Below, piece by piece: positions 104 through 1,664 of a stretch of DNA of 13,368 bases. The DNA is taken from IMG/VR virus record IMGVR_UViG_2630968543_000001; one strand, given 5' to 3'. Source of the stretch: a virus (taxonomy: Monodnaviria; Loebvirae; Hofneiviricota; Faserviricetes; Tubulavirales; Inoviridae). Below the pieces are notes generated by a model. It had not been told where the DNA came from and made no database searches. It saw nothing but the letters and a program-made list of their open reading frames with translations. Both the position numbers and the translations under genes were made by a program. Position 1 is the first letter of the stretch. Each line of letters starts with the position of its first letter.

Positions 104-370
104 TTAGTCCTGCTGTCGACCAGGGGCATCATAACCTTGTCTTTTTCGCCATGCTTTTTCACCTCTCTCCCATATAACCGTGTCATTAGTTAGCTTTCTA
201 AATTTCGCTAATACTTTTTTATCAATGGATAAATTTCCATTAGCATTCAAATATACGAAAGTATCGCCAAATAACTCTTTTATTTTATATACAACAGTTT
301 CTTGATATAGCCAGTTTGTGTTTTCCAGCTCTGATTTCATCCATTGTGCAACATCATCTACAGTAGCCAT
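104..370 (-). CDS. Hypothetical 88-aa protein, distal gene of a two-gene operon
   Basis: ORF-track 88 aa. On the minus strand the ATG is preceded by AAGGA 5 nt upstream and sits 10 nt after the stop of the upstream 264-aa ORF. No domain recognised by eye. The region is visibly AT-rich. Confidence 0.5.
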   Translation of the reverse strand: MATVDDVAQWMKSELENTNWLYQETVVYKIKELFGDTFVYLNANGNLSIDKKVLAKFRKLTNDTVIWERGEKAWRKRQGYDAPGRQQD

Positions 371-380
371 ATATGTCCTT

Positions 381-1175
381 TTATTTTGGTGAGATTATTA
401 CTTTTACCGAAATTGAATTTGTACAACGCTCAAGGTCATTCTCCACACCAATTGGATTGGCAATTCTACCTTCAGGGTCATATACAAAACACACTAAAGT
501 TTCGCAATCAGGATGCGTTTGATAATGAGCTATATCAACAATTAATTGCTCACCAACTTCTTTTTGCTTGAGATTTTTTCTCGTTTTCTTTAACTCGATA
601 ATGATTTTTTCATTCTTTAACAAGAAGTCAACTCGTGTTGAAGATCCTGCATAGCTTGGCGTATATTCTTCTGGTCTGACATCCTCGAAATGAATCTTCA
701 AAAGAGCATGAAATAAATCCTGAACGTCATATTCGTCATTTATTTCAATGGTTTGTCTATTATCGTGTCGTTGCTGTAGCTGTCTTGCAACCTTATGAAA
801 TTGATGGCAAATTAGTTCAACAAGAGCTACGGGATCATTTTTTGTCTCTATGAAATTCCCGTCAATTCCATATTCTTCAATCTCAGCAATCATAGACGTA
901 AGAAGAGAATGTGCTTCATCTAAACCACTACAAAATGCGTTATCGAAAACATAATCTGGTGTATCACCAACAAATGCCATTAAAGAGTATCGAATTGAGC
1001 CAAATTCTTTTTTGTGATCTGACTCTTCACCAAATATTTTTGATATGGCGGTCTTAGTGTTTCTTTGCCATAAGTTAAAACTTGGGTTATTTCCTGTACT
1101 CCTTCGTTCATTTTGTATTGCTGGGATTTGCTCCCGTTGTCTTTTTAATATCTCGATAGCTTTTTCTGGCTTCAT
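381..1175 (-). CDS. Hypothetical 264-aa protein with a PD-(D/E)xK-like nuclease motif in the C-terminal half
   Basis: ORF-track 264 aa with GAGGA 7 nt upstream of the ATG. Residues E164 (HFEDV), D183 (RVDFLL) and E194-L-K196 (IIIELKK) have the order and spacing typical of the restriction-endonuclease-like fold. No confident family assignment from memory. Confidence 0.6.
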   Translation of the reverse strand: MKPEKAIEILKRQREQIPAIQNERRSTGNNPSFNLWQRNTKTAISKIFGEESDHKKEFGSIRYSLMAFVGDTPDYVFDNAFCSGLDEAHSLLTSMIAEIEEYGIDGNFIETKNDPVALVELICHQFHKVARQLQQRHDNRQTIEINDEYDVQDLFHALLKIHFEDVRPEEYTPSYAGSSTRVDFLLKNEKIIIELKKTRKNLKQKEVGEQLIVDIAHYQTHPDCETLVCFVYDPEGRIANPIGVENDLERCTNSISVKVIISPK

Positions 1176-1241
1176 TATCTTTCCTCAAGACTAAAAAATA
1201 ACCACTCTGAACTTCACCGCTGATATATGGAGCAAAATTGC

Positions 1242-1664
1242 TTACCAATAATAAGAGTTTCTTCTGTGCCACCAATAAAGCAGACCGTATCCGACGATAA
1301 GAATACCGAAAAACATTAACGACATTCCCCAGCCAGTTCCGTACCACGAAACCATATCATCGAAAACCAACCCACCCATTTCACGTACTCCGGCAGCTTC
1401 CTTAAGAATTGGTTTGAATACCGGAATCAGAAGGGCGATCGCCAGTGGAGCACCCCAGCGAACAAGGCCTGTTTCCATTTTGATCCCGAAAAAGATCCCC
1501 GCCCCAACAACAAGCAGCCAGACTATCAGGCCAGGCGCAGTTTCCAGTGCTGTTTGCCATTCAACATCGAAAGTTTTCATTAGCCAGGCAACAACTGCCA
1601 GACAGAAAGCAAATACGCCGACGACAACCAGTTCAACGCCGCTTGTTTCGTTATTTCTACTCAT
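1242..1664 (-). CDS. Small integral membrane protein (about 4 predicted TM segments), function unknown
   Basis: ORF-track 140 aa with hydrophobic segments at roughly aa 10-28, 45-61, 71-83 and 113-132. AAGGA lies about 8 nt upstream of the ATG on the minus strand. A 66-nt gap separates it from the downstream 264-aa gene. It is visibly GC-richer than the two downstream genes. Confidence 0.5.
   Translation of the reverse strand: MSRNNETSGVELVVVGVFAFCLAVVAWLMKTFDVEWQTALETAPGLIVWLLVVGAGIFFGIKMETGLVRWGAPLAIALLIPVFKPILKEAAGVREMGGLVFDDMVSWYGTGWGMSLMFFGILIVGYGLLYWWHRRNSYYW

Follow-up and report, generated by a model that had tools for sequence, protein, structure and literature searches.

An exchangeable nuclease cassette at the attachment-site end of a filamentous prophage of Escherichia coli VR50

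The stretch of DNA analyzed here (IMG/VR record IMGVR_UViG_2630968543_000001; 13,368 nucleotides, hereafter the window) holds a filamentous prophage of Escherichia coli, at the left end of which three genes lie on the minus strand between positions 104 and 1664. The three-gene cluster is the accessory end inside the prophage and comprises one backbone membrane-protein gene plus an exchangeable two-gene cassette. The cassette encodes a 264-residue protein with a PD-(D/E)XK nuclease domain and an 88-residue DUF6953 protein. We lean towards the reading that the nuclease is a candidate anti-phage (defence or abortive-infection) protein, expressed in the lysogen and carried as prophage cargo.

The cluster and its place in the prophage

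Positions 1–1763 match the chromosome of E. coli VR50 at 100% identity, with a hipA remnant to the left and the filamentous prophage to the right. The prophage genes encode a helix-turn-helix (HTH) repressor, a II/X-family replication protein, a single-stranded DNA (ssDNA)-binding protein, coat proteins, Zot, and a secretin. The prophage is a dif-integrating inovirus of the CUS-1/YpfPhi type described in PMC4266046.

The open reading frame (ORF) list contains the three co-oriented ORFs that an earlier note on this DNA had described, at 104–370 (88 residues), 381–1175 (264 residues), and 1242–1664 (140 residues). Shine–Dalgarno (SD)-like motifs, AAGGA, GAGGA, and AAGGA, are read 6–8 nt upstream of the three ATGs, as had been claimed. 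The gap of 10 nt between the 264- and 88-residue genes, also pointed out there, extends from 371 to 380, and the SD of the second cassette gene overlaps the end of the first. The cassette, the 140-residue gene, and the HTH repressor gene (1764–2210, upstream of the 140-residue gene) all share the repressor's strand; the genes for replication and assembly are on the other one. The earlier note placed the cluster between a dif-like site and the prophage. That dif-like site, however, is where the prophage itself begins on the left. The cluster is thus internal to the phage, flanked by the attachment site and the repressor gene, and each tandem phage copy of strain FDAARGOS_1303 has the corresponding slot in this position.

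An exchangeable slot

Alignment with FDAARGOS_1303 delimits the cassette. The flanks, 1–100 and 1237–1763, are conserved (~97% identical), and the interior is unrelated. The exchange boundaries in the alignment are 100/101 and 1236/1237, the latter 5 nt 3′ of the stop codon of the 140-residue gene, such that the nuclease–DUF6953 cassette occupies 101–1236 on the minus strand. In FDAARGOS_1303 the prophage is a tandem, each copy of which has the same 100-nt left end, two unrelated genes, encoding a 159-residue protein and the ECs_2282 zinc-ribbon protein, and the same 140-residue gene. At least eight other cassette types were found in the same slot of related prophages, as surveyed in a spread sample drawn from the 667 E. 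coli records that matched and in six fetched loci. The VR50 version of the cassette is present in 24 of 5426 complete E. coli genomes and in 24 of the ~120 records with backbone-level matches.

The HTH repressor gene and the 140-residue membrane-protein gene, in turn, are conserved phage backbone; the latter is 97–100% conserved beside five different, unrelated cassettes (L002, L129–L132). The three genes had been proposed to form one unit, but only 101–1236 is exchanged, and the 140-residue gene stays with the backbone. Annotating the three genes as a single system would be wrong. A conserved system of membrane protein, nuclease, and small partner is ruled out, as neither of the other two genes accompanies the nuclease in 80 loci, each of another species, or in 23 viral contigs. 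What stands of the cargo and defence interpretation first offered for the cluster is that it is accessory cargo of a dif-associated element and that its nuclease is related to abortive-infection effectors; the three-gene system does not stand.

Several alternative cassettes match PDC entries of PADLOC, which are defence candidates. A DUF2971 cassette matches PDC-S31 (3.9e-48), an AbiJ_NTD4+DUF7014 cassette matches PDC-S32 (4.5e-10), and a zinc-ribbon protein matches PDC-S64 (4.3e-7), these three matches being graded clear or moderate; a fourth alternative cassette has a weak match to PDC-S57 (3.3e-4). A more distant inovirus of E. coli EC4 (L134, 2265–4430), which encodes a HigA-family antitoxin close to its right end, carries in the slot a DUF2971 (PDC-S31) gene and a gene for an MltR-family regulator instead of the 140-residue gene and the cassette.

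CUS-1 of E. coli O18:K1:H7 and YpfPhi of Yersinia pestis belong to the same phage family as the VR50 prophage, and they share with it integration at dif and a dif rebuilt on the right. Their attL-side ORFs and the VR50 cluster occupy the same place, with the left junction on one side and the RstR-like repressor on the other. These ORFs vary between CUS-1 and YpfPhi and have no known function (PMC4266046). Two are counted on the attL side of CUS-1/YpfPhi (PMC4266046), whereas VR50 has the 140-residue gene and the two-gene cassette, and the restriction endonuclease (REase) plus DUF6953 cassette of VR50 is not among the attL-side ORFs given in that paper.

The E. coli slot also fits the accessory hot spot known for Vibrio filamentous prophages. 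According to the searched passages of PMC11630473 and PMC12715192, the dif-integrating filamentous prophages of Vibrio have such a hot spot (pHVR), a small variable locus with conserved flanks, which is enriched in defence systems, toxin–antitoxin pairs, and single defence-associated genes. The same passages report complete defence systems for 8.5% and partial ones for 33% of the variable loci, and cargo that is retained in degraded prophage relics. The E. coli slot resembles the Vibrio pHVR in its eight or more cassettes, in the PDC-S31-, PDC-S32-, and PDC-S35-type matches, and in the phage-less dif-side relics found in Pectobacterium; it differs in its Enterobacterales hosts and in its CUS-1/Ypf phage lineage. 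REase plus DUF6953 cargo was not found in those passages of the two Vibrio papers.

The nuclease domain of the 264-residue protein

Residues 113–264 (381–839, minus strand) form a PD-(D/E)XK nuclease domain with catalytic residues D183, E194, and K196. It had been stated that none of the three proteins could be placed in a characterized family; Pfam places two of the three, namely, the 88-residue protein in DUF6953 (1.8e-28) and the 264-residue protein in PF18742 (REase_DpnII-MboI; 6.9e-59, 198.1 bits, cut-off 27). The PF18742 match aligns residues 118–264 with profile positions 2–150 of 150, and no other restriction-enzyme family is found among the Pfam matches of the protein at E≤1. The nuclease-like motif already noticed in the protein is genuine. 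It reads D183...E194-x-K196, is carried on strands 183–186 and 191–197 of an AlphaFold2 (AF2) model, and is conserved in 24 diverse homologues from several phyla, E194 being nearly invariant. In the 24 E. coli genomes the nuclease is full length, its catalytic residues are intact, and it is 99–100% conserved. By its sequence, then, the protein has an intact PD-(D/E)XK nuclease domain and is predicted to cleave DNA.

PADLOC, which the earlier note had recommended, gives a match to Aga_Helical-REase (1.3e-34) over residues 97–263 and a second match, to PDC-S35, over the N-terminal part only (see below). The only solved relative found by sequence is EcbAgaN (PDB 23wq; 2.4e-4), for which residues 139–199, the catalytic core, are aligned. 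The long-B Argonaute system BPAN has EcbAgaN as its effector, a non-specific DNase that is dimeric, depends on Mn, and degrades the genome once activated (PMC10620215). bAgaN cuts ssDNA (efficiently) and double-stranded DNA (dsDNA) without specificity and kills the infected cell (PMC10620215). PF18742 is, in addition, listed as an effector domain of some Detocs systems.

Like bAgaN, the VR50 protein has two domains, a C-terminal restriction-endonuclease-like fold, a D-E-x-K motif, and a homologous catalytic core. In contrast to bAgaN, it is 264 rather than 390 residues long, its N-terminal domain is unrelated, and the window has no Argonaute gene. With an unrelated N-terminal domain and no Argonaute, its activation must therefore differ from that of bAgaN. 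The VR50 locus has one hallmark of a BPAN system, a bAgaN-type nuclease domain (by the Aga_Helical-REase match and, for the core only, the EcbAgaN match). It does not have the other, an adjacent inactive long-B Argonaute: the neighbours in the window are all phage genes, and no neighbour is conserved in the 80 loci of other species. NCBIfam gave no match for any of the three proteins, PHROG matched the cluster proteins to families of unknown function only, and literature searches for DUF6953, PDC-S35, and DpnII-MboI in connection with defence returned nothing useful.

The N-terminal domain and its exchangeable partners

Residues 1–112 (840–1175, minus strand) form a four-helix-bundle domain, the helices of which span residues 3–102 of the AF2 model with a pLDDT of ~90. 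The PADLOC match to PDC-S35 (3.6e-11) lies here and aligns residues 1–107 with model positions 1–103 of 264. PDC-S35 and the VR50 protein are both single proteins of ~264 residues with a common N-terminal helical domain. We infer that the architecture of PDC-S35 is the N-domain followed by a Cap12-like TIR domain, the commonest partner of the N-domain, and that the nuclease replaces the TIR in VR50.

An exhaustive search with residues 1–112 returned 462 cluster representatives, and the C-terminal domains were tallied for the 77 listed matches of at least 200 residues. A Cap12/PycTIR-like TIR is the partner in 37 (Cap12, 3.3e-6), the PF18742 nuclease in 17 (by a local profile), transmembrane (TM) segments in 9 (by hydropathy), a canonical TIR in 5 (AbTIR, 2e-43), and an MTA/SAH-nucleosidase-like domain in 1 (8.7e-4). 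The other 8 comprise three unnamed C-terminal groups (3, 3, and 1 members) and 1 unclassified protein. The N-domain can also change beneath a conserved nuclease. Between E. coli and Pectobacterium brasiliense the nuclease domains are 77% identical and the N-domains 19% (381–1175 vs. L092 5196–5984); to judge from these identities, the P. brasiliense N-domain has been replaced or has diverged within one gene. Relatives of this divergent N-domain are found on two viral contigs (L124, L125).

By analogy with known systems, a small conserved module joined to interchangeable cell-killing domains would mark an abortive-infection immune protein. CBASS, Pycsar, and Detocs (Cap12, PycTIR, and DtcC variants) likewise combine one conserved module with swappable TIR, TM, nucleosidase, and REase domains. 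Their effectors are triggered by a partner-made signalling nucleotide or by a phosphorelay, whereas VR50 encodes no partner enzyme, and the common module is a small helical domain.

The DUF6953 protein

The 88-residue protein (104–370, minus strand) matches DUF6953 (Pfam PF22266; 98.9 bits, cut-off 27), residues 3–75 aligning with profile positions 1–73 of 74. Its model reads helix-strand-helix-hairpin-helix-wing (pLDDT 90), and a basic C-terminal wing, W67-E-R69...W74-R75-x-R77 (W-E-R-G...W-R-K-R), is nearly invariant among DUF6953 homologues. With an HTH and a β-wing in the model, the protein is a predicted winged helix, and DNA binding is predicted. A fold search against viral structures gave no significant match.

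Pairs of nuclease and DUF6953 were found in three settings only: the E. coli cassette, P. brasiliense (with a 16-nt gap), and Morganella, where the nuclease is reduced to a 52-residue remnant. In Pectobacterium polaris a nuclease that is 85% identical to that of VR50 lies beside dif without DUF6953. Because the P. polaris nuclease lacks it, DUF6953 is not needed to tolerate the nuclease, and an obligatory antitoxin role of DUF6953 is ruled out by this locus. The copy in Morganella morganii (L083–L085, 3658–5314) is a decaying cassette, present on at least 19 contigs: the nuclease remnant and a 213-residue ORF with a weak match to a two-TM effector model precede the intact DUF6953 gene, and an attachment-like hairpin in degenerate form comes after it.

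The 140-residue membrane protein

The backbone gene at 1242–1664 (minus strand) encodes a membrane protein of 140 residues. The four TM segments previously ascribed to it correspond to hydrophobic segments at ~10–29, 44–61, 68–84, and 112–131, three strong and one marginal. Neither Pfam nor PADLOC gave a match. Its homologues are confined to Enterobacterales; one of them, of 127 residues (36% identity, 2e-15), follows the nuclease in an unrelated inovirus (L101).

Distribution and relics of the nuclease

More than 3600 nuclease homologues were found. The retrieved loci come from Proteobacteria, Bacteroidota, Cyanobacteria, Planctomycetota, Firmicutes, CPR bacteria, and archaea at ~50% identity, and such a spread over many phyla and archaea at this identity is typical of horizontally moving genes. 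In the 80 loci from other species the nuclease has no conserved neighbour, no DUF6953, and no homologue of the 140-residue protein. Nor is DUF6953 or a homologue of the 140-residue protein found beside the nuclease on the 23 viral contigs examined besides three E. coli-type ones. Among 140 flanking proteins tallied in the 80 genomes were 5 PIN proteins, 4 integrases, 3 AbiEii-like ATPases, 2 GmrSD proteins, 2 PemK proteins, 2 type IV secretion system (T4SS) coupling proteins, and 1 N6 methylase. The neighbourhood of the nuclease is that of mobile elements and defence islands, not that of a restriction–modification pair. The nuclease gene of Citrobacter koseri is in a tailed prophage, and most other IMG/VR matches to the nuclease are viral contigs of 23–61 kb.

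In Enterobacterales the gene is also found without a phage. In P. brasiliense, dif (with one mismatch) is followed by a spacer of ~490 bp, the nuclease gene, the DUF6953 gene, and the hairpin, with no phage genes; this locus is a minimal phage-less relic. A solo nuclease gene 550–690 bp from dif is found in P. polaris and in another enterobacterial genome (L135/L136). The phage-less dif-side loci are L092 (4676–6346), L093, L100 (7420–8795), and L135 (6282–7780).

Two further inovirus types, one with a Rep_trans replication gene (L101, L105) and one with a Phage_GPA replication gene (L138, L139), bear a nuclease homologue at the attachment-site end at 56–58% identity, in segments 5880–7260 of L101, 6780–8171 of L105, and 4583–6372 of L138. 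The small gene after the nuclease encodes a 163-residue TM protein in L105 and a 139-residue coiled-coil/zinc-ribbon protein in L138. The L105 copy of the nuclease is frameshifted. Side observations on these loci are an inverted dif-like pair around a hairpin in L101 and L138, e.g., GATTCGCACAATG...CATTATGCGAA in L138, and, common to L101 and L105, a TACCCCCGTAG-TACCCCCGTAG direct repeat shortly 5′ of the nuclease gene.

A proposed role and its alternatives

We propose the following course of events. The cassette would be read through from the transcription unit of the repressor and the 140-residue protein and would be expressed in the lysogen in this way. The 264-residue product would act as both sensor and effector, its N-terminal helical domain restraining the DNase, which would be released when invasion by a phage or another mobile element is sensed. 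The released DNase would degrade DNA indiscriminately, like its relative bAgaN, and this degradation would abort the infection, protecting the lysogen population and the prophage. DUF6953, a small winged-helix protein that would bind DNA and have its translation coupled to that of the nuclease, would most likely tune cassette expression or the access of the nuclease to DNA, as an optional add-on. Cassettes would be swapped through homologous recombination between the conserved flanks.

Some results weigh against this proposal. A consensus promoter scan of the cassette gave matches no more numerous than in shuffled sequence; because no cassette promoter was found, expression in the lysogen is deduced from gene orientation alone. 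The cluster, the nuclease, and the membrane protein had no match, at the DNA or protein level, among 50,697 deposited phage genomes, and the nuclease is absent from those genomes. PDC-S35 failed as a whole-model match, the C-terminal half of the 264-residue protein being unmatched. DUF6953 homologues adjoin unrelated genes, such as UmuDC-like genes (in a phage), DUF2158, and housekeeping operons. Finally, the nuclease–DUF6953 pairs of E. coli, Pectobacterium, and Morganella have the same attachment-hairpin sequence just downstream. Because all carry the same hairpin, the pairs are one lineage rather than independent cases; independent recurrence in Pectobacterium is ruled out by the same flanking hairpin and dif.

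A wider version of the proposal is put forward tentatively, as being possible rather than probable. In it, the N-domain would define a large family of single-protein abortive-infection immune proteins with swappable killing domains, the nuclease version would be the one spread by inoviruses, and DUF6953 would be a novel winged-helix partner that gates the nuclease. As a further part of this joint reading, the nuclease version in Enterobacterales would have been spread mainly by dif-integrating filamentous phages and would survive as phage-less dif-side relics.

Among other explanations, it is conceivable, though unlikely, that the nuclease is a weapon between dif-integrating elements. Helped by the membrane protein or DUF6953, it would destroy the ssDNA or replicative form of a rival filamentous phage or integrative mobile element exploiting Xer (IMEX), i.e., it would provide superinfection exclusion and not a general defence against phages. 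The attachment-site-proximal position of nuclease homologues in three inovirus types (CUS-1-like, Rep_trans, and Phage_GPA) would suit such a role, as would the nuclease genes directly beside dif, with no phage genes left, in Pectobacterium and the other enterobacterial genome, the efficient cleavage of ssDNA by bAgaN, and the homologue of the membrane protein after the nuclease in L101. YpfPhi lysogens are, moreover, partly resistant to superinfection (PMC4266046). However, outside Enterobacterales the gene is found in integrase islands, integrative and conjugative elements (ICEs), and tailed prophages, all unconnected with dif and inoviruses, and it is missing from most CUS-1-like prophages. 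The adjacency to dif is explicable simply by descent from phage cargo.

Quite unlikely, in our estimate, is a toxin–antitoxin addiction module in which the nuclease is the toxin and DUF6953 the co-translated antitoxin, stabilizing the prophage or a dif-integrated relic. The small, co-oriented genes, 10 nt apart and with the second SD overlapping the end of the first gene, have the look of such a pair, and toxin–antitoxin pairs are the commonest cargo of the Vibrio hot spots in the passages cited above. The decay seen in Morganella, with the nuclease reduced to a remnant and DUF6953 intact, is in the order expected for a toxin and its antitoxin. However, the toxin gene of such a module should always have the antitoxin gene beside it, and the nuclease is without a conserved neighbour in 80 of 80 other-species loci and in most viral contigs; the P. 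polaris nuclease beside dif has no DUF6953, and DUF6953 also occurs without any nuclease.

It is improbable that the genes are unrelated hitch-hikers in a recombination hot spot, with a nuclease that may be decaying or may process phage DNA. What follows the nuclease does vary with the inovirus, being DUF6953, a 127-residue TM protein, a 163-residue TM protein, or a 139-residue zinc-ribbon protein, and the L105 copy is frameshifted. Yet the nuclease is intact and nearly invariant in its 24 E. coli genomes, and the close coupling of the two cassette genes is kept in Pectobacterium (16 nt vs. 10 nt). Because most variants of the prophage lack the gene, it is not needed by the phage.

Very improbable is an orphan type II restriction enzyme of DpnII/MboI type that cuts unmethylated incoming DNA while the host is protected in trans, e.g., by Dam: the window has no methyltransferase ORF (and only 1 of 140 flanking proteins elsewhere is an N6 methylase), the characterized relative bAgaN cleaves ssDNA and dsDNA without specificity, an N-domain common to TIR, TM, and nucleosidase effectors would make no sense as a DNA-recognition module, and Pfam shows no further restriction-enzyme family; a classical restriction–modification system is ruled out by the lack of a methylase partner.

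The attachment region and other features of the window

Positions 1–100 are the phage attachment region and left junction of the prophage, an inverted pair of dif-like sites around a GC stem-loop. Site 1 (4–36) consists of a XerC-like arm (4–14), an odd 11-nt centre (15–25), and a XerD-like arm (26–36), i.e., GGTGCGCATAA / 11-nt centre / TTATGTTGAAA. Site 2 (71–97, minus strand) is inverted and reads GGTTCGCACAA / TGACG / TTATGCTAAAG. The strong GC-rich hairpin that had been reported to abut the dif-like site is present, with stems 38–47/60–69 that extend into a longer inverted repeat, I1, at 24–47/60–83. Folded as ssDNA, 1–100 forms one forked hairpin (-31.1 kcal/mol, z -7.6) in which the XerC-like arms are paired, the centres mismatched, and the XerD-like arms paired. 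This forked-hairpin architecture is known from CTXphi-type attachment sites. Because the ssDNA fold has the architecture of CTXphi-type sites, also noted for YpfPhi, the hairpin is phage integration machinery; YpfPhi is reported to have paired inverted XerC/XerD sites (PMC4266046). At the junction of the tandem phage copies in FDAARGOS_1303, 1–100 is the same but for one loop base.

The window begins at the hybrid left junction (site 4–36), and the intact dif lies to its right: canonical dif, GGTGCGCATAATGTATATTATGTTAAAT, follows directly after the last base of the window (L001 28372–28399). The published arrangement of CUS-1/YpfPhi-type integration likewise has dif rebuilt at the right end (PMC4266046).

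As minus-strand RNA, 1–100 folds at -43.6 kcal/mol (z -8.3) and is followed by UUUUC. The attachment hairpin also sits at the terminator position of the cassette and may terminate its transcript. A consensus terminator scan did not pick up this hairpin with its 12-nt loop, and an Rfam scan of the window gave no RNA family. An inverted repeat, ACGTGCAGT...ACTGCACGT (1708–1734, minus strand), was read between the repressor gene and the 140-residue gene and may be an attenuating terminator.

Part of the attachment hairpin, 72 bp long (27–98), recurs elsewhere at 89–94% identity. Of the matching places, ~480 are on E. coli plasmids, and all sampled plasmid matches cover this piece. In the one plasmid examined (L128, NZ_CP120569.1 15658–15728) it directly abuts an STM4504/CBY_0614 gene (AbiJ_NTD4+DUF7014, PDC-S32-like), and the two adjoin MacB/TolC efflux genes and insertion sequence (IS) remnants. 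This looks like a hot-spot cassette with half an attachment site captured by plasmids.

Further to the right, the window has a perfectly identical 3865-bp internal tandem duplication (1721–5585 and 5586–9450, from the repressor to mid-g3p), the left edge of which, 1721, falls within the inverted repeat at 1708–1734. The apparent two prophage copies are a single prophage with this internal duplication, and the array holds a single cassette and a single attachment hairpin. The duplication leaves a truncated, 436-residue g3p-like ORF (4350–5660) fused to sequence from the 1721 hairpin. Two plus-strand ORFs of 82 residues each (12589–12837 and 12983–13231), between the secretin gene and the right end, match in position the right-end ORFs YPO2280a/YPO2281 of YpfPhi/CUS-1, the function of the latter not being known.

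Significance

The Pfam families of two of the proteins, the presence of both nuclease halves in a catalogue of defence candidates, the variable attL-side ORFs of CUS-1/Ypf, and the Vibrio hot spot are already known. Within limited searches, what appears to be new is this cassette, the breadth of effector swapping by the N-domain, a slot in E. coli that collects PDC-type candidates, and the dif-side relics that lack phage genes. For annotation, the "dif-like site plus hairpin" should be corrected to a phage attachment structure.

The 264-residue protein offers a concrete case in which to ask how a stand-alone bAgaN-related nuclease effector would stay silent and then be activated without a partner. 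If the cassette is active, the slot between the attachment hairpin and the 140-residue gene would be a small and readily mined source of new defence candidates that consist of one gene; among the candidates found through the slot and the domain are PDC-S31, PDC-S32, and the helical-domain/effector family. Should the more tentative joint reading hold, the cargo could explain part of the as yet unexplained benefit to fitness that CUS-1/YpfPhi-type prophages bring to extraintestinal E. coli and to Yersinia pestis. With an active cassette, the small CUS-1/YpfPhi-type prophages of pathogenic E. coli would be carriers of exchangeable immune genes, as in Vibrio.

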